From assembly GCA_964458615.1 (NCBI GenBank), contig CAYWJR010000001.1:24429-88428 (forward strand): a DNA stretch of 64,000 nucleotides. The letters run 5' to 3'. A model generated the notes under the pieces. It was not told where the DNA came from, searched no databases, and was given only the letters and a program-made list of their open reading frames with translations. The translations under genes were made by a program, and so were the position numbers. Shown piece after piece: positions 25,878-46,135 of the stretch; positions within the stretch are counted from its first letter, which is position 1, and each line of letters starts with the position of its first letter. Origin of the DNA: an uncultured Alphaproteobacteria bacterium (GTDB lineage Bacteria > Pseudomonadota > Alphaproteobacteria > SHNJ01).

Positions 25878-28061
25878 TTACGCCGCGTCGGCGTGATTTT
25901 CTTGTCCTAAATTTACACCCTGTTGTGCAAAGAACACAAGAGTAACTTTTGCACCACCTGAAATACTATCCCCAAGAAATAATTCGCCATGATGGTCTTC
26001 GACGATTTTTTTTACGATCGCCAAACCCAATCCGGTTCCTTTGGCGCGCGTTGTAACATACGGTTCAATCAAGCGTTCCCGGCCTTCTTTGGGGAAACCT
26101 TTGCCGTTGTCCGACACGATCAATGTGGTTTTATTTTCATCCGCCAAAATTTCGATATTTATTTTACCAGGTTCAGGCGAAACATTATCCACAGAATCTT
26201 TTGCCTCGATTGCTTCGGCGGCATTCTTCAAAAGATTGTTCAACGCCTGGCGCATCAAACTGGCATCGCAAACCAACTGCGCGCTGGATAAATCATGCGC
26301 ATCGACTTGGAATTGAATATTTTGATGCGCATTTTTTTGCAACAGCACCGAATCGCGTATAATCGCCAGCAGATTTTCCGATTTCATAACCGGGGTAGGC
26401 ATGCGCGCAAAAGACGAAAATTCGTCCAGCATACGCCCCAAATCTTCGACATGGCGAACGATGGTATCGGTGCAACTGACGAATGTTTCCGGGTCTTCGG
26501 CAATCTGCTTTAAATACTTGCGTTTTAACCGTTCCGCCGACAATTGGATCGGCGTCAATGGGTTGCGGATTTCATGCGCCAAACGCCGCGCCACATCCGC
26601 CCAAGCCGAGCTACGCTGTGCGATCAGCAATTGGGTAATATCGTCGAATGTCACGACCATGCCGCGAATGTCGTTTTCCGCCGTATCCATGCTGACACGC
26701 AACAATAACGTTCTGGTTTGACCGTCGTCCAGCGTCAGTTGAATTTGTTTTTCAAACGGCTTGTCGCGCCTTGTATTGTGCAAAACGCTTTCCAACGCTT
26801 CGTCCCATTCCGGCAAAACCAAACTTAGATTTTCGCCGATGTTTTTTTCAAGATCTACGTTCAACAATTCCGATGCGCGTTTATTCGGATATTGAATCCG
26901 CCCTTCGGAATCAAGACCGATCACCCCGGCGCTGACGCCGGATAAAACGACTTCGGTAAAACGGCGGCGCGCGTCGATTTGCCGGTTCGCTTCGATCAAC
27001 TCTCGGCGCTGTGTATCCAATTGATTGGTCATGCGGTTAAACGCCTTGGACAACAAACCGATTTCGTTGCTGCCCGGGGTTGGTTCCACCCGGACCGATA
27101 AATCGCCGGCCGCCACGCGTTCCGAAGCTTCGATCAAATCGCCCACGGGTTTGACCAATTTATTGGCGATATTCAATCCAACGCCGATCGCGCCGAATAA
27201 TAACAATAATGCGACCACCAAATAAATAATGGCGAATAATGCCTGCAAATCGTTGCGTTGGCCCGATAATTGTTCGAACGATTCGGCCGCTTCGCGGGTT
27301 TTTTCCATATGGCTAAGCACTGCGGAATCGATCAATCGCCCGACATACAAATACGCGCCAGGAATATTTTCCAATCGTACGATAGCGCGAACGCGGTCTT
27401 CGGTGTCATTGGTGAAAATCGCGACATCGCCCTGCTCCGCCTTGTCGATTATGTCTTTTGGAATGGGTTCGAATTCCAGGGAAAAAGTCAACGAAGACCG
27501 GGCATATACCCGGCCATTCGGATCGAATACAATCGCTTCGGCCAACGAACGCAACGCCGCGTGCGTTTCCAGAAATTTATTGAAAAAGGCCGTGTCGCCC
27601 AACAATTCGGTCGCCTCGCGGTTGATGTCGCCAGCCATGGTTTGAATATCCGCGCGAATGACTTCTTGGTGTTCGCGCAAATACGCCTCGGCCACGCTGC
27701 GCGATTCCAAAAGCGCGGTGTTGACTCTTTCGCTGAACCAGGCTTCGACGCCAAGATTGAAAAACACGGCGGAAAATCCAGCGACAAAAATTGTCGGCAC
27801 GACCGCAAGAAATCCAAGCAGCACCACAAGACGGGTGTGCAAACGCGATCCGGCCGGGTTGCGGCGGCGCGCCACCATCAATGTGGCAAGGCCGCGATAA
27901 ACGAAAAATCCAAGCACCAACAATATGCCCGCATTGATGGTCATCAATACTTTTACTTTGTATGGGTCCGGGCCATATGGCGGATTGCTGGTCAATGTGA
28001 CATAGGTCAAAACGCCGCTGGCCAGGGCTGCGAACGCGACGATCCAGCTTAGTTTGCGCAT
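25878..28061 (-). CDS. ntrY: Sensor histidine kinase NtrY (TM, HAMP, PAS, HisKA, HATPase).
   Basis: N-terminal TM helices. H-box LAHEIRNPLTPIQLSAERL. N/G boxes (NLLKNAAEA, DNGKGFP, GTGLGLAIVKKIVEDHHG). Start placed at MRKLSW (28061); 28124 is possible. Confidence 0.85.
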   Translation of the reverse strand: MRKLSWIVAFAALASGVLTYVTLTSNPPYGPDPYKVKVLMTINAGILLVLGFFVYRGLATLMVARRRNPAGSRLHTRLVVLLGFLAVVPTIFVAGFSAVFFNLGVEAWFSERVNTALLESRSVAEAYLREHQEVIRADIQTMAGDINREATELLGDTAFFNKFLETHAALRSLAEAIVFDPNGRVYARSSLTFSLEFEPIPKDIIDKAEQGDVAIFTNDTEDRVRAIVRLENIPGAYLYVGRLIDSAVLSHMEKTREAAESFEQLSGQRNDLQALFAIIYLVVALLLLFGAIGVGLNIANKLVKPVGDLIEASERVAAGDLSVRVEPTPGSNEIGLLSKAFNRMTNQLDTQRRELIEANRQIDARRRFTEVVLSGVSAGVIGLDSEGRIQYPNKRASELLNVDLEKNIGENLSLVLPEWDEALESVLHNTRRDKPFEKQIQLTLDDGQTRTLLLRVSMDTAENDIRGMVVTFDDITQLLIAQRSSAWADVARRLAHEIRNPLTPIQLSAERLKRKYLKQIAEDPETFVSCTDTIVRHVEDLGRMLDEFSSFARMPTPVMKSENLLAIIRDSVLLQKNAHQNIQFQVDAHDLSSAQLVCDASLMRQALNNLLKNAAEAIEAKDSVDNVSPEPGKINIEILADENKTTLIVSDNGKGFPKEGRERLIEPYVTTRAKGTGLGLAIVKKIVEDHHGELFLGDSISGGAKVTLVFFAQQGVNLGQENHADAA

Positions 28062-28110
28062 GACGTTATTGCGGCGTACCCACAATAAAAAGGACAGGAA
28101 GGAGGATGTT

Positions 28111-28428
28111 TTATGAATGGCCATGGTTTTTCTTTCTGACCGGAATGTTTAAAGCTTTGATCTTTTTGTGCAAGGTGTTGCGATTGATCCCAAGCATTTT
28201 TGCGGCGCGAATCCGGTTGCCGCGGCATTCCCGCAACGCATACATAATCAGCGGGCGTTCCACCTGCTGGATAACTTGGTCATAAAGCCCGCCATTTTCC
28301 GCCGGCGTGTTTTGATTGCTGGCGCCGCGCACGAAAAATTCAATCATGTCCCGCCATTCGTTTTGGTGCAGGGATTTTATCCCGTCATCGGATTCTATCG
28401 CCATCGCAACGGTGCTGTCTTGGGTCAT
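28111..28428 (-). CDS. Small Fis-family DNA-binding protein (105 aa; Fis/NtrC-C-terminal-type HTH).
   Basis: C-terminus LYDQVIQQVERPLIMYALRECRGNRIRAAKMLGINRNTLHKKIKALNI aligns with Fis ([47 protein letters not shown]) and the NtrC C-terminus. The ATG overlaps the dusB stop as TAATG. The upstream 43 codons of track ORF 28111..28557 lie inside dusB and are rejected. Confidence 0.6.
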   Translation of the reverse strand: MTQDSTVAMAIESDDGIKSLHQNEWRDMIEFFVRGASNQNTPAENGGLYDQVIQQVERPLIMYALRECRGNRIRAAKMLGINRNTLHKKIKALNIPVRKKNHGHS

Positions 28429-29456
28429 TATGCGGCCTGTTTGGACAATAACGGTTCGAAGAAATCGTCGATCATTTGCAATACCGCGTCCGGATCGGCC
28501 GACACATTCACCTTTGCCCGGAAATCGGCGGAATCGGGCAATCCCTTGCTGTACCATCCCAAATGTTTGCGCGCGATTTTCAATCCCGTGCCGATGCCGT
28601 AATGCGACAACATATCCTGATAATGGGTTTTAATAATCGCATATTTTTCATGCAATGGCGGATCGGGCAGTTTTTCGCCAGTTCGCCAATAATGAATGAC
28701 CTGATTTAAAAACCATGGCCGCCCATACGCCCCCCGCCCGATCATAACGCCGTCCGCCCCCGACGCATTCAATGCATTGTCGACATCGTCGAACGTGCAA
28801 ATATCGCCGTTGGCGATGACCGGCAATTTGGTCGCGCTTTTGACGGTTTGAATAAATGGCCAGTTTGCCTCGCCATTATAAAATTGGCATCGCGTGCGGC
28901 CATGCACGGTTATCATTTTAATCCCGGACTCTTCGGCGATTTTTGCGAATTTGGGCGCATTCAAATTGGTATCGTCCCAACCCATGCGCATTTTCATCGT
29001 CACCGGCAATTTCACCGCCCGCACGGTTTCTTCCATAATTTTACCGGCCAAAACTTCGTCGCGCATCAAATGGGATCCGGCATATCCATTAACCACTTTT
29101 TTCGCCGGGCAACCGAAATTAATATCGATAATCGCCGCGCCCGAATCCTCGTTCAATTTGGCGGCATCGGCCATCACATCCGGTTCGCACCCCGCCAATT
29201 GAACGGACATCGGAAATTCTTCGGGCAGATTTTTTGCCATCAATTGCGATTTGCGGCATTCGCGGATCATCGCCTGGCTGGCGATCATTTCCGATACCAC
29301 AAGCCCCGCACCCTGGCGTTTTACCAATTTACGGAATGGCAGATCGGTAACGCCCGACATCGGCGCCAAAATGACCGGATTCGAAATTTGAACCGATCCT
29401 ATGTTGAACCCAGGTAATTTCGTGCCCGGATTGATATTGTTGGTTTTTTCAGTCAT
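28428..29456 (-). CDS. dusB: tRNA-dihydrouridine synthase B (NifR3 family).
   Basis: TIM-barrel Dus motifs (LAPMSGVTDLPFR, DINFGCPAKKV with the catalytic Cys, MITVHGRTR). Confidence 0.9.
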   Translation of the reverse strand: MTEKTNNINPGTKLPGFNIGSVQISNPVILAPMSGVTDLPFRKLVKRQGAGLVVSEMIASQAMIRECRKSQLMAKNLPEEFPMSVQLAGCEPDVMADAAKLNEDSGAAIIDINFGCPAKKVVNGYAGSHLMRDEVLAGKIMEETVRAVKLPVTMKMRMGWDDTNLNAPKFAKIAEESGIKMITVHGRTRCQFYNGEANWPFIQTVKSATKLPVIANGDICTFDDVDNALNASGADGVMIGRGAYGRPWFLNQVIHYWRTGEKLPDPPLHEKYAIIKTHYQDMLSHYGIGTGLKIARKHLGWYSKGLPDSADFRAKVNVSADPDAVLQMIDDFFEPLLSKQAA

Positions 29457-32825: not shown

Positions 32826-33398
32826 TTAATCGGAAATGACTTGCGGCGCCGCTCTCATAACGACTTGAGGCGGAGGTGGCGGCGGCGGTGGTGGCGGTGG
32901 AGGCGGTGAAGCAACAGCTGTTGTCACTTTTACAGTATGCGTGACAGTTGCCGTTTGGCTTGGTGTCGATGGTGCTGGCGCCGAATAACTAGGCGTAGGC
33001 GACGGAATTACGGGAGTTACAGAAGATACCGTTGTCGTTGGCGCCGAATTACCAGTGGTAGGTCTTGTCGCAGTAACAACTGGCCTTACTGGCCGAACCA
33101 CGGCTGCGGATGCGCGTTGTAAATTGTTGTTATATGCATATGACGATTTCGATGGCGCGATCTTGCTAAAAGATATATTGCGCCCCTGCACTTCGGATAC
33201 TGCGCCCGATTGGTCGCCTGTGCTTGAATTCATTAATCGGCGCAACGGGTTTTGCGCAGCCTGATTGACGCCCGAATTCCGGTTATTGCGGTAATTTGTT
33301 GAATAATAATTTTGATCTTGCTGTGCATAGGCATCGGCGATTGGCGATAAAATCAATACCGCCATAATCAAAATTAGATGTCTCATAACCCTGTTCAT
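32826..33398 (-). CDS. Secreted low-complexity protein with a poly-proline (~P13) tract.
   Basis: Signal peptide MRHLILIMAVLILSPIADAYA. Asn/Ser/Thr/Pro-rich. C-terminal ...ASPPPPPPPPPPPPPQVVM encoded by a GGN/CCN simple repeat at about 32868..32906. Confidence 0.6.
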   Translation of the reverse strand: MNRVMRHLILIMAVLILSPIADAYAQQDQNYYSTNYRNNRNSGVNQAAQNPLRRLMNSSTGDQSGAVSEVQGRNISFSKIAPSKSSYAYNNNLQRASAAVVRPVRPVVTATRPTTGNSAPTTTVSSVTPVIPSPTPSYSAPAPSTPSQTATVTHTVKVTTAVASPPPPPPPPPPPPPQVVMRAAPQVISD

Positions 33399-33647: not shown

Positions 33648-36362
33648 ATGAGCAGATCCAGGCTTCCAGCAGCAATCGAAAAAAAAGATTGCGGTTTATT
33701 GCCGCCCCGAATTTTTGATAATTCCGGGATCGTTGCCGTTGTAACAGATTCCGAAAATATAATTACCGATTGCAATCAAGCCGCCACCGATTTTTTCTCG
33801 CAAAATCATAACGACTTAGCAGGGGAAAATTTGCTGGCTCTGATCGACAATGGCGACAGAATATTTATCGAAAGCCTGGCCGCCAAAATAATCGATGGAA
33901 GCAAAAAAAATATCCAGTTAGAAAAACCGGTAATGGTTATATCCGAATCCGGATTCCAGGAAAAATGGATCCGCATCGATTGCAATATTTATGGATCAGA
34001 CAATAAATATCTTATCTATTTAATTCAGGATATTACCGCGCAACAAAAATCCGCAATCAAAGAAAAACAAACGGAAAAGAATCTAAACAATATTTTGTCC
34101 GCCATGGCGGATGGTTTTTTATTATTCGACTCCAACGGCCAATTGTTGGATTTCAGCCCGTCTATACACGATCTGTTTCCGCAAGTGCAGCAAAGCCTGA
34201 TCCCCAAAATGCATATCGCCGAGGTGTATAGCAAAATTATATACTCGCAAAATATAATTGACGCGCTTGATAACGAACAAACTTATTTACAAGAATGGCA
34301 AACCAAACAGATAACCGGGTCGTACAAATTATTTTTCAAACATAAAAATCAGAAAAATTATCTGCTGCAATACCACCAATCTCCGAACCAATCTATTTTA
34401 ACATTTACCGACGTCACGATGATCCGGGAAAAAGAAACGTTGCTGGCCACATTGGCGTCGGAAAATTCGCATTTGTCCAAAGCGGTCGACGCCACCCAGG
34501 TCGGCATCGCCATTTGCGATGCGCGATTGCCGTTAAAACCAATTATATATTTCAACCACGCCTTTCATACAATCGTCGGGCACGCCGCCGAGAAAGTAAT
34601 CGGCGAGAATATCGGTGTTTTATTCAATGCCGAAAGCGACCAAACGGCGATACGGCAAATCGAATCAGCATTGGAAAACAACGCCGTCGCGGACGTTGAA
34701 ACGAAAGCGGTCGACGCAGGCCACCGGACATTTTGGTGCCATATTCAAATCAATCCGATTATCGACGTAACGGGAATTTGCACCCATTTTGTTTTGATGC
34801 TGACCGACATCAGCCGGCGCAAAAATCAAGAACAGGAATTGATTCAGGCAAAGCGCGCCGCCGATGAGGCAAACAAGGCGAAATCCCAATTCCTTGCGAT
34901 TATGAGCCATGAAATCAAAACACCTATCAATGGCGTTATGGGCATGGTCGATTTATTGATGACATCGAATCCAAATGAAAAGCAGCAGCAATTTTTATCC
35001 ACGGCGAAAGAATCAGCCGGAAAATTGCTTGGACTTGTAAACGATATTCTGGATTATTCGGATTTGGAATCGAACCATTTGGCCATAAAACCGAAACCGG
35101 TGGATTTAAACGAATTGATACGCCGGTCATTGGCCGACATCAAAGAAGACGCGTTTAAAAAGAATCTAAGCCTGCAATTTTTGCTGGATCCCAAAATACC
35201 CAAAAAATTGTATGGCGACCCGGATCGTATTGCCCAAATCGTGCGCAATATTGTCGGAAATTCAATTAAATTTACCGAACGCGGCCATATCGAAGTACAT
35301 CTAAATCTGCTTTCGGAAACAAACAAAACGGCAAAATTGCAATTGAAAATCATCGATACAGGAATTGGAATTGCGCCGGACAAACTAAATTCCATTTTCG
35401 ATCCGTTTCACCAAATCGATTTATCGTTTACCAGAAAATACAGCGGCACCGGTCTTGGGCTTGCGATCTGCAAAAAACTGCTACAATTGATGCACGGCGA
35501 CATCAGCGCCAAAAGCACGCTTGGATCAGGCACAACGATCAATTGCACGCTGTCCCTGCCCCTGCACCCGCCGGAACATAGTGTAAATGGAAATTCAGAA
35601 GGCAAAACAACCAATAAAAAGAAAATATTGATTGTCGACGACAGCATGACAAACCGTATGATCCCGGCCAGCTTGCTGCGACCTTATGGATTTGAAATTC
35701 ACGAAGCCGATGGCGGAAAAAAAGCCATCGATCTGGCATCGACCCACGATTACGATTTGATATTGATGGATATTGCCATGCCCGAAATCGACGGCATCGC
35801 GGCGACACGCGCCATTATATCCGCAAAACCTGGGCGCCAGGTAAAAATAATCGCCATTACCGCGCATTCGTCGGAACAGGAAAAAACCAAATGCATTCGC
35901 GCCGGGATGATCGATTATTTAACCAAACCGGTTGATAAAGAAAAGTTATTGGCGGCCTGTTTTAACGTTATGAATATTTCATTTAAAAACGGTGGTGTCA
36001 TGGAAAACAAAAATATGTTGGATGAAACGATATTGCACCAATTGGAAAACGATATTGGCGATAAAACATTGCGAACATTGCTGGATGCGTTTATCGAAGA
36101 AACCGTGGAGCGGTTAAAATTGATCCGCCAATTCAGCCGCGAACAAAAATGGGAATATTTGGGCCGCGAAGGCCACACGTTAAAATCCACCAGTGGCAGT
36201 TTCGGACTTATGACGTTATGCGATAAATCATCGCAATTGGATGAATTGTGCCGCACGCAAAATTACATCCAGGCTGAACTGACCGCGGCGGAAATCGCCA
36301 ATATGGGCGGCGAATGCATCGGAACATTGCGCAAATGGATGGTGGAAAAACTGCCTAATTAA
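33648..36362 (+). CDS. Hybrid sensor histidine kinase/response regulator with PAS domains, HisKA, HATPase, receiver and C-terminal Hpt domain (tripartite ArcB/BarA/TorS-like architecture).
   Basis: H-box LAIMSHEIKTPINGV. G boxes (DTGIGIA, GTGLGLAICKKL). REC (ILIVDDSMTNR...LILMDIAMPEIDG...TKP). Hpt (HTLKSTSGSFG). Confidence 0.85.
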   Translation: MSRSRLPAAIEKKDCGLLPPRIFDNSGIVAVVTDSENIITDCNQAATDFFSQNHNDLAGENLLALIDNGDRIFIESLAAKIIDGSKKNIQLEKPVMVISESGFQEKWIRIDCNIYGSDNKYLIYLIQDITAQQKSAIKEKQTEKNLNNILSAMADGFLLFDSNGQLLDFSPSIHDLFPQVQQSLIPKMHIAEVYSKIIYSQNIIDALDNEQTYLQEWQTKQITGSYKLFFKHKNQKNYLLQYHQSPNQSILTFTDVTMIREKETLLATLASENSHLSKAVDATQVGIAICDARLPLKPIIYFNHAFHTIVGHAAEKVIGENIGVLFNAESDQTAIRQIESALENNAVADVETKAVDAGHRTFWCHIQINPIIDVTGICTHFVLMLTDISRRKNQEQELIQAKRAADEANKAKSQFLAIMSHEIKTPINGVMGMVDLLMTSNPNEKQQQFLSTAKESAGKLLGLVNDILDYSDLESNHLAIKPKPVDLNELIRRSLADIKEDAFKKNLSLQFLLDPKIPKKLYGDPDRIAQIVRNIVGNSIKFTERGHIEVHLNLLSETNKTAKLQLKIIDTGIGIAPDKLNSIFDPFHQIDLSFTRKYSGTGLGLAICKKLLQLMHGDISAKSTLGSGTTINCTLSLPLHPPEHSVNGNSEGKTTNKKKILIVDDSMTNRMIPASLLRPYGFEIHEADGGKKAIDLASTHDYDLILMDIAMPEIDGIAATRAIISAKPGRQVKIIAITAHSSEQEKTKCIRAGMIDYLTKPVDKEKLLAACFNVMNISFKNGGVMENKNMLDETILHQLENDIGDKTLRTLLDAFIEETVERLKLIRQFSREQKWEYLGREGHTLKSTSGSFGLMTLCDKSSQLDELCRTQNYIQAELTAAEIANMGGECIGTLRKWMVEKLPN

Positions 36363-38488
36363 GGCGTTTGAACTATTGTTCGTTCTTTGGGCATGTGGAT
36401 CGTAACCTTGGTTCCTTGATTCAGTCCGCTTTCCAAAATAATCGTGCCGCCGTGCATTTCCACCAGCGATTTGGTAATCGGCAACCCAAGCCCTGTTCCT
36501 TTGTATCTGCGGCTAATTTGGCTGTCGACTTGAATGAACGGCTCCATGGCGCGCGCAATGCTGTCGGGTTCCATGCCCACGCCATGATCCTGTATCGAAA
36601 CCGAAATCCCCATATCTTCGCGCAGCCAAAATTTAATTTCTATGCTGCCGCCGTCGCTGCTGAATTTTACCGCATTCGATACCAAATTGGTGAATATTTG
36701 CGTCATCGCGCGTTCATCCGCGTTCAATTTCGGCAAATTCTGCGGCATATCGATAAACAACTGAATGCCCGCGTTTTGCATTTCAATTTCAACGAAACTT
36801 TGTACCCGCGCCAATATATCGCTTAGAACCAATGGCGTGCTATTCAAATCCAGCTTGCCTTCTTCCATTTTGGACAGATCCAGAATGTCTTTGATCAAAT
36901 TCAACAAATGCTGACCGCTTTTGAAAATATGTTCCGAATATTCGACATATTTCGCATTGCCCAATGCGCCTAAAATTTGCGTTTGCATCGCTTCGGAAAA
37001 ACCCATAATGGCGTTTAACGGCGTGCGCAATTCATGGCTTACATTGGCCAGAAACCGGGATTTCGTCTTACTGGCCATCAACGCCGCATCTTTGGCCGTA
37101 CGCATTTCCTTGACCGCCTTTTCCCGTTTTTGGGTTTCGGAATTGAATTTATCAAGGATCATATTGTATTGCATGGCGATCGTGCCCGCCTCTGTTTCCT
37201 GCTCGACATCGACAGGGCGAGTAAAATCGCCCTCTTGGCGTTGGCGTTCCATTTCCTGCAATAATTTAAACAACGACGTATTCGCGCCATGTTCCGCCAC
37301 GTTTAATCCGATGCGTTCGGATTCGGGGTCGACGCGCAGCGCGAAAAACCGGTCGATTACCGCCAAACAAATGAATCCGACGGTGAAAGAATATGCACCG
37401 ATACTGACGATACCCAAAAATTGTACGCCCAATTGTTCCATGCGGGTAAGGCCGGAATCGAATGCCGTTGTCGGCGCGAATAACGCAACCGCCAACGTAC
37501 CCCAAATCCCCGCGAATAAATGCGCGGGAACGGCATTGATAACATCGTCGATTTGCAATTTTAACAATAATTCGCAGCCCGCATAACACACCATCGCGCC
37601 GATCATGCCGATAATGATCGCTGCATATGGCGTAATAACATGCGCGCATGCCGATATACTAACCAATCCAGCGACAACGCAACTGATCGATCGGATGACG
37701 TTTGGCCGGCCTTTAAAATGCCAAGATAACGCCAATGCGGTCAAACCGCCAATCGCGCCGCCCAATGCCGTATTCAAAATAACCAATGGCACATCGCCGG
37801 TGAATTGGGGCAACGACCCGCCGGTAAATCCGAACCAGCCCACCCACAACAACATCAATCCCAATGTCGCTTTGGGTAAATCGCTGCCTTCGATTTCGGT
37901 GCCTTGCGGGCCGAACCGGCCGATGCGCGGCCCGATAATAATCAATGCCGCCAGCGCCATCCAGCCGCCGACCGAGTGAACCACGGTCGATCCCGCGAAA
38001 TCGATGAATCCCAAACTGACCAGCCAGCCGGAACTGGTATCCGGAATCGACCCCCCCCACGCCCAATGGCCGGCGACGGGATAAATCAATCCTGATAAGA
38101 TGCAGGAACAAAACACATAACCGGTAAAACGGATCCGTTCGGCCACAGCGCCCGAAACGATGGTGGTGGCAATGGCGCAAAACGCCATCTGGAAAAGAAA
38201 GAAAGAATACAGCCACGAAGATGCGGTATCGCCGAATACAAAATAACTTCCGCCTATTATGCCGTTTTGGCTGGCGCCAAACATAATGCCAAACCCAAAC
38301 AGCCAGAATAACAAAGACGCGATACAAAAATCGACGACGTTCTTACCGGCGACATGGATGCTGTTTTTCGCGCGCACCAATCCGCTTTCAAGGCAAGTAA
38401 AACCCGCCTGCATCATGATGACCAGAATGGCGCAGAAAACCAGCCAGAAAATATCGAAATATTCGGATAAACCTTCTACCAAAATCAA
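36359..38488 (-). CDS. Ammonium transporter (Amt) domain fused to a histidine kinase (Amt-HK sensor).
   Basis: N-terminal ~400 aa is a typical Amt/MEP channel (about 11 TM helices; ...DFAGSTVVHSVGGWMALAALIIIGPRIGRF...). This is followed by an H-box (LANVSHELRTPLNAIMGFSE) and an HATPase_c domain (GTGLGLPITKSLVEMHGG). No receiver domain. 4-nt convergent overlap with the hybrid kinase. Confidence 0.8.
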   Translation of the reverse strand: MILVEGLSEYFDIFWLVFCAILVIMMQAGFTCLESGLVRAKNSIHVAGKNVVDFCIASLLFWLFGFGIMFGASQNGIIGGSYFVFGDTASSWLYSFFLFQMAFCAIATTIVSGAVAERIRFTGYVFCSCILSGLIYPVAGHWAWGGSIPDTSSGWLVSLGFIDFAGSTVVHSVGGWMALAALIIIGPRIGRFGPQGTEIEGSDLPKATLGLMLLWVGWFGFTGGSLPQFTGDVPLVILNTALGGAIGGLTALALSWHFKGRPNVIRSISCVVAGLVSISACAHVITPYAAIIIGMIGAMVCYAGCELLLKLQIDDVINAVPAHLFAGIWGTLAVALFAPTTAFDSGLTRMEQLGVQFLGIVSIGAYSFTVGFICLAVIDRFFALRVDPESERIGLNVAEHGANTSLFKLLQEMERQRQEGDFTRPVDVEQETEAGTIAMQYNMILDKFNSETQKREKAVKEMRTAKDAALMASKTKSRFLANVSHELRTPLNAIMGFSEAMQTQILGALGNAKYVEYSEHIFKSGQHLLNLIKDILDLSKMEEGKLDLNSTPLVLSDILARVQSFVEIEMQNAGIQLFIDMPQNLPKLNADERAMTQIFTNLVSNAVKFSSDGGSIEIKFWLREDMGISVSIQDHGVGMEPDSIARAMEPFIQVDSQISRRYKGTGLGLPITKSLVEMHGGTIILESGLNQGTKVTIHMPKERTIVQTP

Positions 38489-38546
38489 CTCTCCCGTGAT
38501 TGGTATTATATTGGCTTTTTACATCCGGGTCGCGCAAATAACGGTT

Positions 38547-39533
38547 TTAAGCCGTTTTTTTAAATTTTTCATTCCTGGCTTGTTGCAGTTTAACAAAATC
38601 GTCGCCAGCATGGTACGAAGAACGGGTCAATGGCGACGATGAAATCATCAAAAATCCTTTGCCCCTGCCCGCTTGCGCCAGCGATTCGAATTCATCCGGC
38701 GTGACAAAACGGTCAACGGCAATATGTTTTACGGTCGGTTGCAAATATTGCCCGATCGTCATGAAATCGACATCGGCGGCGCGCAAATCGTCCATCACCT
38801 GGCCGACTTCTTCCTTGGTTTCACCCAACCCGACCATGATGCCGGATTTGGTGAATATCGTCGGATCGATTTCTTTTACCCGCGACAGCAATTGCAAGCT
38901 GGCGAAATACCGCGCGCCGGGACGAACGGTTGGGTATAAGCGCGGCACGGTTTCCAAATTATGGTTGAACACATCGGGTTTGGCGCGGGCGACAATTTCA
39001 ATCGCTCCTTCTTTGCGCAAAAAATCGGGCGTTAAGATTTCAATCGTGGTTTTAGGCGACAACATGCGGATTTTGCGGATCGTTTGGGCAAAATGTTCCG
39101 CGCCGCCATCATCCAAATCGTCGCGATCCACAGATGTTACCACCACATGGCTAAGCCCCAGTTTTTGAACAGCCAACGCGACATTGTCCGGTTCATGCGG
39201 ATCCAATTTATCCGGCCGGCCAGTCGCCACGTTGCAAAATGAACAAGCACGCGTGCAAACCGATCCCAAAATCATAAACGTCGCATGTTTTTGCGACCAG
39301 CATTCGCCGATATTCGGGCACGCGGCTTCTTCGCAAACGGTGCGCAAATTCAAATCGCGCATCAATTCCTTGGTTTCATGATAAGTTTTCGATGTCGGCG
39401 CCTTTACACGGATCCAATCGGGTTTGCGTTGGATCGGATTGTCCGGGCGATGCGCTTTTTCTGGATGGCGCAGTGCAGCCTTGTTTGGCTCGGATTCAGG
39501 ACTGGAATCGGTAATTTTATTGTCAAATGTCAT
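38547..39533 (-). CDS. lipA: Lipoyl synthase.
   Basis: Radical-SAM CxxxCxxC (CTRACSFC) plus the N-terminal auxiliary cluster cysteines ([12 protein letters not shown]). Confidence 0.95.
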
Positions 39534-41575: not shown

Positions 41576-42730
41576 TTACATCGCCCCTGTTAAATATTCG
41601 TATTTGCCGTTATTCCATTGATACATTTTGAAAAACGGAAATTTTAAATCGCCTTTTTCGTCGAATTCGATTTGTCCCAAAACGGTTTTAAATTTACCAT
41701 CCCGCAAAGCCGCGATAATTTTCGCGCTGTCCGATGCATTCGCCGATTTTGCAATCGCCTGCGCCGCCAATTGCACATTCGCATAAGAATATAATGTGAA
41801 TATTTCAGGCTTTATTTTACGGGACTGAAGCGATTTTATAACCGCGCCAGATGCCTTATCCTTGGTTGGATCCAAAGGCCCGGACATGACAAATCCATTG
41901 GCCGTTTTATTCGCAACCGACCAAAATTCCTGAACCATTGCGGCATCGCCGCCAATAAATTTTATTTTTAATTTGGCGTCCGCCGACTGACGGATGATCG
42001 AACCCGCCTCGATGGGGAATGTCGCGATCAACGCAACCGTGATTCCCTTGGATTTCAATTTGGTAACAAGCGATGAAAAATCTTTTTCGCCGGTCGAAAT
42101 CGTATCGTAAATGACTTCTTTGATTCCAGCCGCAGCCAGGTGTCCGCGCACGGCATCCGCCAATCCTTTGCCCCATGTCGTTTTATCGTGAATGATCGCG
42201 ATTTTTTCATCGGTCGTGTATTTACCCACGTAATCTTTGCCCGCATGCGATTCGCCCGGGGTTGCGAATTTTTTCAATATATAGGCGGCCAAAACCTCGC
42301 CTTGCTGATCGTCGCGGCCATAGGGGCGAAAAATATTTTTCATGCCGCGCTCGGTAATTTCCGGGTTGCTGGCAGTGGGTGTAATATTGGCGATGCCTTC
42401 ATCCGCTGTAACGCCCGAAGCCGCCATAAACGCGCCGGAACATGCAGGCCCGATGATTAACGCAGGCGATGCGCCAACCAACCGGTTGATGGCCAAAACC
42501 GCCTGTTTTGGATCGCACGCATCGTCTTCCAATTTGATGGCCAATTTTTCGCCCAAAACGCCACCCGATGCATTGATGTCGTCAACCGCGGCCTTGATCC
42601 CAGCCAAACTTTGTTCGCCCAAACTGGCGGCTGGCCCTGTCATGGGCAATGATACGCCGATTGTAATATCGGCGTGTGCGGAACAGACAAAAGCAAAAGA
42701 TAAAATTACGCCGATAATAAATTTTTTCAT
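41576..42730 (-). CDS. Branched-chain amino acid ABC transporter substrate-binding protein (LivJ/LivK family); orphan.
   Basis: Signal peptide MKKFIIGVILSFAFVCSAHA. PBP type-I fold motifs (GVSLPMTGPAASLG...IGPACSG). Start at 42730 chosen (TAATG junction with the upstream paralog). No cognate permease or ATPase genes nearby. Confidence 0.8.
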   Translation of the reverse strand: MKKFIIGVILSFAFVCSAHADITIGVSLPMTGPAASLGEQSLAGIKAAVDDINASGGVLGEKLAIKLEDDACDPKQAVLAINRLVGASPALIIGPACSGAFMAASGVTADEGIANITPTASNPEITERGMKNIFRPYGRDDQQGEVLAAYILKKFATPGESHAGKDYVGKYTTDEKIAIIHDKTTWGKGLADAVRGHLAAAGIKEVIYDTISTGEKDFSSLVTKLKSKGITVALIATFPIEAGSIIRQSADAKLKIKFIGGDAAMVQEFWSVANKTANGFVMSGPLDPTKDKASGAVIKSLQSRKIKPEIFTLYSYANVQLAAQAIAKSANASDSAKIIAALRDGKFKTVLGQIEFDEKGDLKFPFFKMYQWNNGKYEYLTGAM

Positions 42731-43827
42731 TACAACCCGCCATTCATCAATTGATAATCGCCGTCGATCCATTGATAAAATTTCCACAAAGGTTTAGTCA
42801 TATCGCCGTTTTTATCGAACGACACGGGACCAATCAAAGTATCGAATTCGGATGAATGCAGCGCAGCTACGATTTTAGACGATTCCGCCGACCCCGCCTT
42901 TTCTATGGCTTGTGCCATAACCTGCATCGAAGCGTACATATATAGCGTATATAATTCTGCCTTGCCTTTTTGCGCTTCGATTTGCTCGACCGCCTTGCGT
43001 CCGGCGTCATTTTGCCGTGGATCGAAAGGGCCGCTGAACACAACGCCCTCACCCAGTTTTCCAGCGACTTTCCAGAAATCGGCGTTTAGCAACGCATCGC
43101 CACCAATAAAAGCCGATTGCAGTTTTTGTTCCCGCGCCTGGCGCACCATCAATCCGGCTTCGACCGGAAACAGGCCCATGACCACCACGTCGATTTTTTC
43201 TTTTTTCATCCGGCTGATAGTGGCGCTGAAATCCTTGTCACCCAAATTCACGCTGTCGATCAAAACCGGTTTCACGCCGGATTTGACCAGCGCTGCGCGC
43301 ACATTATCGGTTAGGCTTTTGCCCCAGGCCTGTTTATCGTGCAATAGCGCGATACGTTTACCGGGATGGGTTTTCTGGATATATTGGTAGATAAATTCCG
43401 CCTGCTGGCTATCGCGGCCGTTCAATCTGGCCAGATTTTTCAACCCCCGCCCTGTCACGTCGGAATGGGTGGAAATCGTTACCTCGGGCAAGCCTTCCTC
43501 GGCGAAAATTTCCGATGCCGGGATTGTCGCCATGGAACATAGTGGCCCCAAAATCCCAGTCACGCCTAAAGACACCAAACGGTTCGCCGCTGCTACGCCT
43601 TGCTTGGCGTCGCACGCATCGTCTTCGTATACGACCTTGATTTTTTGGCCGCCTAGAACACCGGTTTTGTTGATTTCGGCAAGCGCGGCTTTGATCCCTT
43701 CCCGCGATTGTTCCCCAAATGCCGCCGCGCTTCCGGTCAATGGCGTGGAAACGCCGATCAAAATATCGGCTGAGGCTGGCGTGCATAGAAGAGAGAGCAA
43801 TAAGGTGGCGAATAGAATCTTTTTCAT
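42730..43827 (-). CDS. Branched-chain amino acid ABC transporter substrate-binding protein (LivJ/LivK family); paralog of the previous gene.
   Basis: Signal peptide MKKILFATLLLSLLCTPASA. Same family motifs (GVSTPLTGSAAAFG...LGPLCS). Tandem paralog. Confidence 0.8.
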   Translation of the reverse strand: MKKILFATLLLSLLCTPASADILIGVSTPLTGSAAAFGEQSREGIKAALAEINKTGVLGGQKIKVVYEDDACDAKQGVAAANRLVSLGVTGILGPLCSMATIPASEIFAEEGLPEVTISTHSDVTGRGLKNLARLNGRDSQQAEFIYQYIQKTHPGKRIALLHDKQAWGKSLTDNVRAALVKSGVKPVLIDSVNLGDKDFSATISRMKKEKIDVVVMGLFPVEAGLMVRQAREQKLQSAFIGGDALLNADFWKVAGKLGEGVVFSGPFDPRQNDAGRKAVEQIEAQKGKAELYTLYMYASMQVMAQAIEKAGSAESSKIVAALHSSEFDTLIGPVSFDKNGDMTKPLWKFYQWIDGDYQLMNGGL

Positions 43828-43857: not shown

Positions 43858-44754
43858 TTAAACCATCATCAAAAACGGCTCTTCGATAAAGCCTTTGAAT
43901 GCTTGCAACCATTCCGCGCCAACCGAACCGTCAATCGCCCTGTGGTCAACCGACAACGTGCATGTCATTACCGTCGCAACGGTCAATTCGCCATCGCGCA
44001 CGATTGGGCGTTGTTCGCCCTGCCCAACGGCCAAAATTGCAGCCTGCGGCGGATTGATGATCGCGGCAAAATCCTTGATGCCGAACATGCCCAAATTCGA
44101 AATGCTGAATGAACCGCCGGTATATTCTTCGGGCATCAATTTTCCGGCCTTGGCGCGTTCAGCCAGGGATTTCATTTCTACCGAAATATCCTTGAATCCC
44201 TTGCGGTCTGCGGCGCGAATAATCGGCGTGATCAGGCCGCCGGGAATTGCCACCGCAACCGAAATATCGGCCTGATTATATTTCAACATGCCTTCGTCCG
44301 ACCAGGACACATTGGCATTCGGCACCTTGATCAACGCGCTGGCGCAGGCCTTGATGATCAAATCGTTGACCGATAATTTGACGCCGTCGGATTCCAGTTT
44401 TTTATTCAAACGCACGCGCATGTCCAGCAACGCATCCAATTGACAATCCACGGTCAGATAAAAATGCGGTACGGTTTGTTTCGATTCGGTCAGGCGTTTG
44501 GCAATCACCTTGCGCATCATCGAATGCGGTTCAACGGTAAATGCCGCCTGCGGCAAATTACCGGGCGCGGACATTACCAGCGATTTATTTTGCGCGATTG
44601 GCGATGCGCCGCCGCGCGCGGATTCGACATCATGGCGCACAATGCGCCCGCGCGGACCCGTGCCGGTGATGCCGGATAAATCCACGCCCATTTGTTTGGC
44701 CAAACGTTTGGCCAGGGGCGATGCGATGATGCGTTGTTGGTTGGAATGCAACAT
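43858..44754 (-). CDS. pdhC: Dihydrolipoamide acyltransferase E2 core of the pyruvate dehydrogenase complex, apparently lacking an N-terminal lipoyl domain.
   Basis: Begins directly with the peripheral subunit-binding domain (IIASPLAKRLAKQMGVDLSGITGTGPRGRIVRHDVE), then the 2-oxoacid dehydrogenase acyltransferase catalytic domain (...SVDHRAIDGS...). The ATG is 1 nt after the pdhB stop, so no room for a lipoyl domain. Confidence 0.75.
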   Translation of the reverse strand: MLHSNQQRIIASPLAKRLAKQMGVDLSGITGTGPRGRIVRHDVESARGGASPIAQNKSLVMSAPGNLPQAAFTVEPHSMMRKVIAKRLTESKQTVPHFYLTVDCQLDALLDMRVRLNKKLESDGVKLSVNDLIIKACASALIKVPNANVSWSDEGMLKYNQADISVAVAIPGGLITPIIRAADRKGFKDISVEMKSLAERAKAGKLMPEEYTGGSFSISNLGMFGIKDFAAIINPPQAAILAVGQGEQRPIVRDGELTVATVMTCTLSVDHRAIDGSVGAEWLQAFKGFIEEPFLMMV

Positions 44755-44755
44755 G

Positions 44756-46135
44756 TTATTTCCCCAAAACTTGTTTCACGGCGTCGATTACATCCGAAAC
44801 TTGCGGCAGGCTCATCGCCTCTAAATTCGCGGCATATGGCAATGGCACATCCTTGCCCGTCACACGAATCAATGGCGCGTCCAGTTCATCGAACGCTTGT
44901 TCCATAATCACGGCGGCGATTTCGGAACCGATCCCGGCATATGGCCAGCCTTCTTCCAATGAAATAATATGATTGGTTTTACGCACCGATTCGATAATCG
45001 TCGCGGTATCCAGCGGACGCAACGTGCGCAGATTGATAACTTCGCAACTAATCCCTTCGGATTCCAATTGCTCGGCGGCTTTTAATGCCAAACCGACGGG
45101 ACGCGAGAATGCAATGATGGTTACATGTTGACCCACGCGTTCGATTTTCGCCTGGCCGATTGGAACAGTGAAATCCTTGTCGGTAGGGCATGGGAATGAT
45201 TGGCCGTACATAATTTCGTTTTCCAAAACCACAACCGGATTCGGATCGCGGATGGCCGATTTCATCAAACCTTTCGCGTCTTCGGCGGAATAAGGCGCGA
45301 CGACTTTTAATCCTGGGCAATGCGCATACCATGACGCATAACATTGCGAATGCTGCGCCCCCACGCGCGCGGCGGCGCCATTTGGGCCGCGAAACACAAT
45401 CGGGCAACCCAATTGGCCGCCCGACATATATAACGTTTTCGCAGCGGAGTTAATGATTTGATCGATCGCCTGCATCGAAAAATTCATGGTCATGAATTCG
45501 ACAATCGGTTTCAATCCCAAAAAGGCCGAGCCGACCGCAAGACCCGCGAATCCATGTTCGGTGATTGGCGTGTCGATCACGCGTTTTGCGCCGAATTCAT
45601 CCAACAATCCTTGGGATACTTTGTACGCGCCATTATATTCCGCGACTTCCTCGCCCATCAAAAATACTTTTTCATCGGCACGCATTTCCTCCGCCATCGC
45701 TTCGCGCAATGCCTCTCGCACGGTTTTGATTTCGGTCGGGCCGGTATAGGCGCTTGGCGCCGGTGCGGCGGCAACCGTTTGTTTCGGCGCGGATGATGCG
45801 GATTTATTCACAACAATATCGGATTTTGGCGCCTGGGTAGCCGGTTTTGGCGCGGCATGCGTGCCATTGGTTTTAATCGCGCCGGCGTCTTCGCCTTCTT
45901 CCAATAACACCGCAATAGGCGTGTTCACCGCAACGCCTTGGGATCCGGCATTGATCAGGATTTTACCGATTACGCCTTCATCGACTGCCTCGACTTCCAT
46001 AGTCGCTTTGTCGGTTTCGATTTCCGCGATCACTTCGCCGGGCTTTACCTTGTCGCCCTCTTTTTTATGCCATTTGGCCAGGTTTCCCTCGGTCATGGTT
46101 GGCGATAATGCAGGCATTAAAATTTGGATGGGCAT
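44756..46135 (-). CDS. pdhB: Pyruvate dehydrogenase E1 beta subunit with N-terminal lipoyl domain (alphaproteobacterial type).
   Basis: N-terminal lipoyl domain ([22 protein letters not shown]...[10 protein letters not shown]), Ala/Pro linker, then the transketolase-like E1-beta body. Confidence 0.9.

Follow-up and report, generated by a model that had tools for sequence, protein, structure and literature searches.

A candidate ammonium-sensing phosphorelay: an Amt-type receptor histidine kinase and its convergently encoded, putative Hpt partner in an uncultured alphaproteobacterium

Which downstream component receives the signal of an ammonium-transporter-like protein that is fused to a histidine kinase? 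This question is raised by a 64-kb stretch (64,000 nt; hereafter the window) of a contig from an uncultured alphaproteobacterium, in which amtHK (36359..38488, minus strand; 709 aa) and the gene of a soluble hybrid kinase (33648..36362, plus strand; 904 aa) converge and overlap at their stop codons. A sequence-only reading of the window had proposed the pair as an ammonium-sensing phosphorelay, and both open reading frames (ORFs) were recovered from the ORF list and by Pfam at the positions and with the domain architectures described there. Based on residue mapping, structure modelling and comparison with related loci, an ammonium-receptor kinase is proposed here that feeds a phosphorelay through an Hpt protein, in the window by way of the receiver (REC) domain of the hybrid kinase. 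The probability of this model as a whole is estimated at roughly one half.

Loci of relatives are designated L plus a number, and the window locus is labelled WIN in the tree and in comparisons. By a scan of metagenome contigs with a family-specific linker alignment, 296 stretches were confirmed and 80 loci retrieved. A scan of genome contigs with the full-length alignment and the generic motifs TVVHSxGGW and SHELRTPL yielded a true fusion of Amt and histidine kinase in none of 80 loci. L167 and L003 represent one genome, L001 is GCA_004295055.1 and L004 is Parvibaculum lavamentivorans. Conservation counts refer to an alignment of 70 homologues and, for the kinase boxes, also to 16 sequences. 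Published residues were mapped onto the window protein by means of a HMMER alignment to Sd-Amt1, and an AlphaFold2 model of AmtHK (mean pLDDT 85) was built from the 70-sequence alignment.

The Amt-type sensor kinase

The product of amtHK is predicted to be an ammonium-receptor histidine kinase of the order Amt, HAMP-like linker, HisKA and HATPase. Pfam recognised Ammonium_transp at residues 15-403 (E 3.7e-113, profile positions 2-397 of 399), HisKA at 476-544 (E 2.7e-19) and HATPase_c at 591-702 (E 1.4e-26), and the score against the NCBIfam ammonium-transporter model TIGR00836 'amt' (391.8 bits) exceeded the cutoff of 343.3. No Pfam match to Response_reg was obtained in AmtHK, confirming that this kinase has no receiver domain. 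The model shows 11 long helices before residue 381, matching the earlier count of about 11 membrane helices for the Amt part. The listed start codon, TTG at 38488, lies just 2 nt past a Shine-Dalgarno-like GGGAG (38495-38491), and TTG at 38482, two codons further downstream, represents a better-spaced start; the N-terminus is uncertain by about two residues.

The Amt/Rh sensor module with its 11 transmembrane helices (residues 15-403; 37280..38446, minus strand) was delimited by Pfam, structure alignments, residue mapping and the 70 homologues. Nearest among the solved structures were Sd-Amt1 (8QJ3; E 5e-123, residues 13-459) and, in second place, Ks-Amt5 (6EU6; E 2e-93). All conserved residues of the conduction path are present in AmtHK: the vestibule pair W144/S225 corresponds to W139/S225 of Sd-Amt1, the Phe gate F103/F221 to F98/F221 and the twin-His pair H171/H323 to H169/H323, and these positions are conserved in 69-70 of the 70 homologues. 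The module is thus of the channel type and does not represent a generic polytopic anchor, one of the outcomes by which the sequence-only reading would have been refuted. Furthermore, the six ligands of the lateral N1/N2 ammonium site (Q27, E34, N50, D53, T109 and S112) are identical to Q22, E29, N45, D48, T104 and S107 of Sd-Amt1, and F30 replaces the Tyr of transporters as it does in Sd-Amt1; ligands and F30 are retained in 68-70 of the 70 homologues.

This residue set is the published signature of ammonium receptors (AmR), a class defined in 2024 (PMC11152129). AmtHK displays the Amt/Rh fold with 11 membrane helices, the pore residues, the N1/N2 ligands and a C-terminally fused HisKA plus HATPase_c in one ORF. 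Judged by these traits, AmtHK is very probably an AmR-type ammonium sensor, and its sequence places it as a new member of the characterised class comprising Ks-Amt5 and Sd-Amt1. For Ks-Amt5, a crystal structure and ammonium-dependent autophosphorylation have been reported, phosphorylation being raised by NH4+ (PMC5764959).

An obstructed cytoplasmic exit is a supporting feature of the AmR class and not its signature. It is brought about by N269 in Sd-Amt1 (PMC11152129) and by the bulky F27, Y30 and F34 in Ks-Amt5 (PMC5764959). AmtHK departs from this pattern: the window protein and the relatives closest to it have Ser at position 269, as do transporters, among them the assimilatory Af-Amt1 at its exit funnel, and Asn is found there in 48 of the 70 homologues; L33 and L37 occupy the sites of Y30 and F34 of Ks-Amt5. 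Residual transport by AmtHK is therefore possible. Carried further, AmtHK might mainly be a working transporter, a 'transceptor' comparable to plant AMT1 or yeast Mep2, whose kinase would report flux. Besides these residues at the exit, the pore of AmtHK is intact throughout, neither a second Amt gene nor a PII gene occurs in the 64-kb window, and the N1/N2-bearing cluster 2 also takes in true transporters (PMC11152129). However, both characterised members with fused domains bind NH4+ without translocating it (PMC5764959, PMC11152129), AmtHK keeps the complete N1/N2 set together with F30, and the failure to find another amt gene applies to 64 kb of sequence and not to the rest of the genome. 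A predominantly transporting role is considered unlikely.

Sensor and kinase are joined by a linker (residues 405-470; 37079..37276, minus strand) that includes LLQEMERQRQEGDFTRPVDVEQETEAGTIAMQYNMILDKFN and was recognised from its alignment to the HAMP region of Sd-Amt1 (11 of 51 residues identical), from the AlphaFold2 model and from sub-threshold Pfam matches. It consists of a helix (405-419), the connector GDFTRPVDVEQET (loop 420-432) and a second helix starting at 433 and leading into the DHp domain. As a criterion for HAMP, two amphipathic helices with a connector of about 14 residues and recognition by Pfam PF00672 were applied. Since the Pfam score stayed below threshold (E 0.14; 12.9 bits, with the cutoff at 25; best E 7e-4 among nine family members), the linker is termed HAMP-like rather than HAMP. 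In the model, one unbroken helix extends from 433 to 502 through H485 and is followed by a helix at 512-542 and by the alpha/beta ATP-binding domain.

The HisKA/DHp domain (residues 476-544; 36857..37063, minus strand) carries the phospho-acceptor H485 (37034..37036) within the H box SHELRTPLN, which contains the HExxT phosphatase motif; H485 and T489 are invariant in all 70 homologues. Likewise, N605, D634xGxG and G664TGLGL (G664-L669) of the HATPase_c domain (residues 591-702; 36383..36718, minus strand) are intact and form invariant columns in the 16 as well as in the 70 sequences. With H, N, G1 and G2 boxes invariant, the kinase is predicted to be active.

Compared to the two characterised receptors, AmtHK has a sensor and a linker like those of Sd-Amt1, coupled to an output of the Ks-Amt5 type. 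Sd-Amt1 of Shewanella denitrificans (Amt-HAMP-GGDEF; PDB 8QJ3, 8QJ4, 8QPF; PMC11152129) is the best structural relative, with 49% identity over the Amt part (190/389), the same N1/N2 ligand set, F25 in place of F30 and an alignment that runs on through the HAMP region. It differs in its output, a diguanylate cyclase instead of a histidine kinase, and in the exit-narrowing N269, which is Ser in AmtHK. Ks-Amt5 (kuste_3690 of 'Candidatus Kuenenia stuttgartiensis', PDB 6EU6; PMC5764959) likewise joins Amt to HisKA and HATPase without a receiver, and its N1/N2 residues Q24, E31, N47, D50, T109 and T112 correspond to Q27, E34, N50, D53, T109 and S112 of AmtHK. Pore motifs are kept in both proteins, and neither has an adjacent glnK gene. 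In contrast to the AmtHK family with its HAMP-like helix-loop-helix, Ks-Amt5 was described without a HAMP or other linker domain; moreover, its pore-occluding Y30 and F34 are Leu in AmtHK, whose sequence matches Sd-Amt1 (E 5e-123) better than Ks-Amt5 (E 2e-93).

The earlier assessment of such fusions as rare and largely uncharacterised was not upheld, given the 296 confirmed stretches, 120 database matches and two members with structures (PMC5764959, PMC11152129). Amt-kinase fusions are widespread and common in Alphaproteobacteria. The best 120 database matches to AmtHK (47-86% identity) all possess the same three Pfam domains at about 700-760 aa, and their named sources are Parvibaculum, Pyruvatibacter, Rhodobiaceae, Dongiaceae, Algihabitans and Arenibaculum, mostly Alphaproteobacteria. 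Other outputs were also observed among the retrieved loci, namely Amt-(HAMP-like)-PAS-HisKA-HATPase-REC-REC and Amt-GAF-histidine kinase-REC proteins in L152, L154, L157 and L164 (about 1190-1250 aa; L152 being an Amt-PAS-HisKA-HATPase-REC-REC protein of 1253 aa) and in L135 and L146 (about 1235 aa; L135 being of the Amt-GAF-histidine kinase-REC type). The existence of these proteins indicates that relay-type outputs and PAS co-sensing recur in the superfamily. In these six marine metagenome relatives the whole front end of a relay is contained in one chain, and some of the other loci retrieved specify Amt fusions 1100-1700 aa in length. Behind the Amt-PAS-kinase-REC-REC hybrids of L152, L154 and L164 no Hpt gene was recognised; the short ORFs that follow on the same strand have no Pfam match.

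The hybrid kinase and the Hpt gene in relatives

The neighbour of amtHK encodes a kinase of the order PAS-HisKA-HATPase-REC-Hpt, all domains scoring above the Pfam gathering thresholds. Its Hpt domain (residues 790-898; 36015..36341, plus strand; Pfam match at 811-873) carries H843 (36174..36176) in the motif REGHTLKS and is homologous to stand-alone Hpt genes in L089, L091, L092, L006 and L167. The REC domain (residues 660-770; 35625..35957, plus strand; E 5.4e-30) contains D664/D665, the phospho-acceptor D708 (35769..35771) and K760. It is the only REC domain within 8 kb and, besides that of NtrX, the only one found in a scan of all window ORFs, so that three histidine kinases (AmtHK, the hybrid kinase and NtrY) face two receivers in the window. 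The kinase core (34878..35558, plus strand) comprises HisKA (411-475, with H421 at 34908..34910) and HATPase_c (523-637), delimited by Pfam and motif positions. H421, D708 (together with K760) and H843 hence represent the H1, D1 and H2 residues of tripartite kinases.

No membrane segment was detected in the hybrid kinase (maximum Kyte-Doolittle value 1.46 over 19-residue windows), and the protein is therefore regarded as cytoplasmic and soluble. Several PAS domains precede the kinase core (best Pfam stretch 277-388). The third of them (residues 276-396; 34473..34835, plus strand) is LOV-like, with LOV domains and LOV kinases such as YtvA and blue-light-activated histidine kinases as best PDB matches (E 1.6e-12 to 1e-8). 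It is probably no photoreceptor, because NIGVLF stands in place of the flavin-adduct motif NCRFLQ and lacks both the adduct-forming Cys and the Arg; flavin binding may be absent as well. The database contains an identical protein of 887 aa (P0121). Best NCBIfam matches were TorS, BarA and ArcB, all below the cutoffs of these equivalogs (361.8 versus 676.5, 352.7 versus 890 and 287.1 versus 838, respectively), and none of these names could be assigned. The order HisKA-HATPase-REC-Hpt is shared with the 'unorthodox' tripartite kinases ArcB, TorS, BarA/GacS and EvgS. Unlike those of the ArcB/TorS/BarA type, the hybrid kinase is soluble, carries several PAS domains and lacks a sensor in the membrane or periplasm; the gene for its Hpt was once separate and has been fused recently.

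The convergent overlap of the two genes was verified in the sequence: it comprises 4 nt (TTAA, 36359..36362), both stop codons lying within AATTAA at 36357-36362. Overlap or near-abutment of amtHK and the Hpt gene is retained in relatives, with a spacing of -26 nt in L091, +3 nt in L089 and a 4-nt overlap in L001. No terminator-like site was seen between amtHK and the hybrid kinase gene. Taken together, these features would fit a link at the RNA level, in which the overlap of the 3' ends would lead to transcriptional interference or antisense pairing, so that either gene, when expressed, would depress the other, and no phosphotransfer between the proteins would take place. However, in the promoter and terminator scans the counts did not differ from those of shuffled sequence, which makes the scans uninformative on this point, and the conserved element is a protein-coding Hpt gene with an intact phospho-His motif, for which interference alone has no need. 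An exclusively RNA-based connection is accordingly rated as very improbable.

Conservation in relatives shows which part of the neighbour accompanies amtHK. A complete hybrid kinase stands beside amtHK solely in WIN, L001 and L087 among the loci examined; in the latter two, AmtHK is 86% identical to the window protein and the convergent PAS-kinase-REC-Hpt gene is present, yet only 53% identical. An Hpt gene or domain recognised by Pfam, in contrast, lies convergent to amtHK at -26 to +12 nt from its stop codon in 9 distinct loci of one clade, one of them with an independent context, down to an AmtHK identity of 58%. In L089, L091/L092, L168 and L169 (AmtHK 75-78% identical) it is a stand-alone gene of 116-124 aa abutting or overlapping the amtHK stop codon. 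These loci share a synteny of pyruvate dehydrogenase genes, lpd, lipA, amtHK and the Hpt gene, continued beyond it by a secreted Pro-rich gene, a RatA-like gene, traX, cinA, pgpA, ispDF, dus, an HTH_8 gene and ntrY. L090 (AmtHK 79%) has an Hpt ORF at this position that is cut by the contig end. In L006/L093 (AmtHK 58%) an Hpt gene of 125 aa is likewise convergent to amtHK, and the neighbours are unrelated (among others a kinase-REC-REC hybrid, ompA and pmbA). All Hpt sequences share RE(G/A)H(T/S)(L/M)KS with the phospho-accepting His. Thus, the conserved neighbour of amtHK is the Hpt and not the whole hybrid kinase; the functional link claimed before has comparative evidence in its favour for the Hpt, found beside amtHK down to 58% identity and in a different context, and not for the complete PAS-kinase-REC-Hpt protein, which adjoins amtHK in L001 and L087 alone among relatives.

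Traces of the fusion are still recognisable. L167 encodes, at the ancestral locus, a PAS-kinase-REC protein of 798 aa, which shares 45% identity with residues 14-775 of the window hybrid kinase, and a separate Hpt of 113 aa (50% identical to window residues 790-898), which starts with MLDESVLNQLE and overlaps the preceding gene by 11 nt. The window hybrid kinase retains Met790 in MLDETILHQLE, corresponding to the first residues of the separately encoded Hpt of relatives. In the L167 genome, lipA and amtHK have been relocated as L003 (AmtHK 78%) and are now situated near glnA and an alanine dehydrogenase gene, a position that fits a nitrogen role. The neighbour-joining tree of AmtHK was (L006,(L005,(L091,((L089,L090),(L003,(WIN,(L001,L087))))))). 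Because Hpt-paired loci form one clade with L006 at its base, the amtHK-Hpt pairing looks ancestral. The most parsimonious history has three steps: an ancestral convergent amtHK-hpt pair, a PAS-kinase-REC gene inserted upstream of hpt before the L003 plus WIN group diverged, and fusion of this gene with hpt in the lineage of WIN, L001 and L087.

Proposed signal routes from the kinase

Retention of an Hpt gene at the 3' end of amtHK in loci without a hybrid kinase, and through one change of context, provides moderate gene-neighbourhood evidence that AmtHK signals through the convergently encoded Hpt; we regard this as an even chance. Since AmtHK has no receiver and direct transfer from His to Hpt does not occur canonically, an intervening receiver is needed. 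In the window lineage, D708 of the hybrid kinase would be the obvious candidate, and it is tentatively proposed as the intermediate receiver between AmtHK and the Hpt.

In the mechanism that we infer from the observed architecture, residues and gene neighbourhood, with ammonium binding, the direction of regulation, each phosphotransfer step and the output all included in the inference, periplasmic NH4+ would pass the Trp/Ser vestibule, the Phe gate and the twin-His pair and would then be bound at the lateral N1/N2 site formed by Q27, E34, N50, D53, T109 and S112. A shift at the end of the eleventh transmembrane helix would be passed on through the HAMP-like helix-loop-helix to the DHp helix, and the autokinase reaction at H485, carried out by the intact catalytic domain, would thereby be altered. 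The most economical route for the phosphoryl group would lead from H485 of AmtHK to D708 of the hybrid kinase, further to H843 and finally to a response regulator. Moreover, the PAS kinase would add a second, intracellular signal to the same D708 and H843. The earlier suggestion that the hybrid kinase is the phosphorelay partner of AmtHK is thus confirmed as regards the modules and has comparative evidence in its favour as regards the Hpt; as regards the transfer itself, it depends on a step to the REC domain that the receiver-less AmtHK would have to perform in trans.

Relays in which several sensors share one Hpt station are known from Vibrio (LuxN, LuxQ and CqsS acting on LuxU) and Pseudomonas (LadS acting on the Hpt domain of GacS). 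The logic proposed here resembles them in that a single Hpt would collect the signals of two sensors that differ in their inputs; in the case of LadS/GacS this Hpt is a domain of one of the kinases. To our knowledge, every input kinase of these relays has its own receiver. AmtHK differs in having none and in that it would phosphorylate a receiver in trans.

Several findings weigh against a common pathway. In the canonical scheme, the receiver-less AmtHK can feed an Hpt only through a separate REC, and in the sequenced flanks of the five lineages with a stand-alone Hpt no REC gene other than that of NtrX was found; the REC donor of these lineages must therefore be encoded elsewhere, making the link to the Hpt indirect at best. 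Being convergent, the two genes are not transcribed together. Sequence divergence is much faster in the hybrid kinase (53% identity) than in AmtHK (86%), and the pair is separable, as in the L003/L167 genome amtHK left together with lipA and the Hpt remained with the PAS kinase. No Hpt was found beside amtHK in L005 (66%), L170 (56%) and the Parvibaculum-type orthologues (about 50%), nor in any examined orthologue of 53% identity or less, L004 (50%) included; this search used our own profile hidden Markov model built from 9 close sequences, which a divergent Hpt beside distant orthologues could escape, and among the distant loci Pfam labels cover L004 alone. Shared adjacency falls mostly within one synteny block and may in part reflect inheritance instead of selection, only L006/L093 being independent. 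Ser269 of the transporter type, which leaves transport possible, is a further point against the model as a whole, as is the fact that no experiment on any member of this AmtHK clade was found in the literature searched.

A rival reading assumes two independent pathways, in which AmtHK would address an orphan regulator encoded elsewhere, as has to be the case in the many orthologues lacking a partner nearby, the Hpt would serve hybrid kinases only and the adjacency would be inherited synteny. In L167 the Hpt gene is found in an operon-like overlap with the PAS-kinase-REC gene after the departure of amtHK, and L004, L005, L170 and a dozen Parvibaculum-type loci have neither Hpt nor REC within 5 kb. 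In addition, the DHp residues around H485 are nearly identical in clades with and without an Hpt neighbour, which suggests one conserved cognate regulator, and for AmtHK, which has no REC, direct transfer to an Hpt would fall outside the canonical scheme. On the other hand, at least five lineages that have no hybrid kinase nearby keep a stand-alone Hpt gene exactly where amtHK ends, and the same pair in the same orientation occurs among unrelated neighbours in L006/L093. As stand-alone Hpt genes are few per genome, repeated chance adjacency to amtHK is unlikely. Independent pathways are accordingly seen as possible, if somewhat doubtful. A comparison of DHp specificity between AmtHK and the hybrid kinase would not be decisive, both sharing the common motif SHE(L/I)(R/K)TP(L/I)N and tethered receivers being known to relax specificity.

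A more radical variant of the Hpt link was also considered. The ancestral module may have consisted of a receiver-less Amt kinase and a stand-alone Hpt with no dedicated receiver between them, into which the PAS-kinase-REC protein was plugged later by insertion upstream of hpt and subsequent fusion. Under this assumption, the Hpt might dock directly on the kinase, for example on a third protomer left unpaired where the Amt trimer meets the dimeric DHp, and it might be phosphorylated by the CA domain in the manner of CheA-P1. If true, the relay would have a non-canonical topology, and an output route would be defined for an Amt-type ammonium receptor for the first time; this variant is considered improbable, and transfer by way of a receiver remains the preferred reading.

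Genomic surroundings and biological meaning

The sequence-only reading had further stated that this genome segment lost NtrB/NtrC. Alphaproteobacteria usually carry ntrBC between dusB and ntrY; in Paracoccus, the gap between Pden_4131 (nifR3) and Pden_4128 (ntrY), the latter followed by Pden_4127 (ntrX), fits canonical ntrBC. Neither ntrB nor ntrC was found between dus and ntrY in the window, where dus (28428..29456) is followed by an HTH_8 gene (28111..28428, minus strand), NtrY (25878..28124) and NtrX (NCBIfam equivalog, 682 bits). The ATG of the HTH_8 gene overlaps the dus stop codon, and the listed ORF of 148 aa is an over-extension. Its product of about 105 aa (about 90-105 aa across the clade) matches Fis (9.8e-15) just as well as the C-terminal part of NtrC (8.5e-15). 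The dus-HTH_8 arrangement resembles the dusB-fis operon of Gammaproteobacteria, and Morett and Bork reportedly proposed in 1998 that Fis arose from the C-terminal domain of NtrC. The order dus-HTH_8-ntrY-ntrX is conserved in seven relatives' loci (L001, L005, L087, L089, L167, L168 and L169) and therefore does not reflect a recent loss, a local deletion or a pseudogene. The statement on NtrB/NtrC is hence valid for the dus-ntrY slot of the window and fails as a description of a recent loss, the slot being occupied by a Fis/NtrC-like gene conserved across the clade.

On its 5' side, amtHK is preceded by lipA, encoding lipoyl synthase (38547..39533, minus strand; identified by Pfam), located 58 nt upstream on the same strand. 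This adjacency is kept in all close relatives, as seen in the contexts of L001, L003 and L005 and by tblastn in L087, L089, L090 and L091. A TATAAT-like hexamer (38510..38505) lies in the gap, so that lipA and amtHK may or may not be co-transcribed. In L170 (P0015, AmtHK 56%) a REC-GerE regulator of the NarL/FixJ type and an HTH_3 protein are encoded divergently about 0.3-1.4 kb upstream, and this regulator is a possible cognate partner of AmtHK in that lineage.

Additional features were observed further away. Pyruvate dehydrogenase E2 (43858..44754, minus strand; 298 aa) consists of E3_binding and the catalytic domain without a lipoyl domain, and E1 beta (44756..46135, minus strand) carries an N-terminal lipoyl domain, the only one found in this part of the cluster; the sizes of both are the same in L001, L005 and L167. 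Two tandem Peripla_BP_6 genes for LivJ-like solute-binding proteins (41576..43827, minus strand) are inserted in the pyruvate dehydrogenase cluster between E2 and lpd, where L001, L005 and L167 have a single copy. Divergent from the hybrid kinase gene, a secreted, low-complexity Pro-rich protein of 190 aa (32826..33398, minus strand) with a signal-peptide-like N-terminus, a PPPPPPPPPPPP run, a conserved NPLQRLM motif and no Pfam match is encoded; positional homologues occur in L005, L089, L091 and L167.

With regard to the organism, the presence of only a Fis-size remnant in the ntrBC slot would make ammonium sensing by an Amt protein physiologically meaningful. If the Hpt link proved false, the locus would represent an ordinary new AmR kinase beside an ordinary hybrid kinase. 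No paper linking an Amt kinase to an Hpt was found in the literature searched, in which the Hpt partnership and the fusion to a PAS hybrid kinase are undescribed. The authors of the two structural studies state that the part played by ammonium receptors within signalling networks has yet to be established (PMC11152129). The window locus and its relatives suggest a concrete downstream component, a small Hpt protein that is fused here to a PAS hybrid kinase, and the output pathway thereby becomes testable with a few purified domains. Moreover, the locus would record the stepwise assembly of a two-input phosphorelay, from a stand-alone Hpt through an operon with a hybrid kinase to a fusion.

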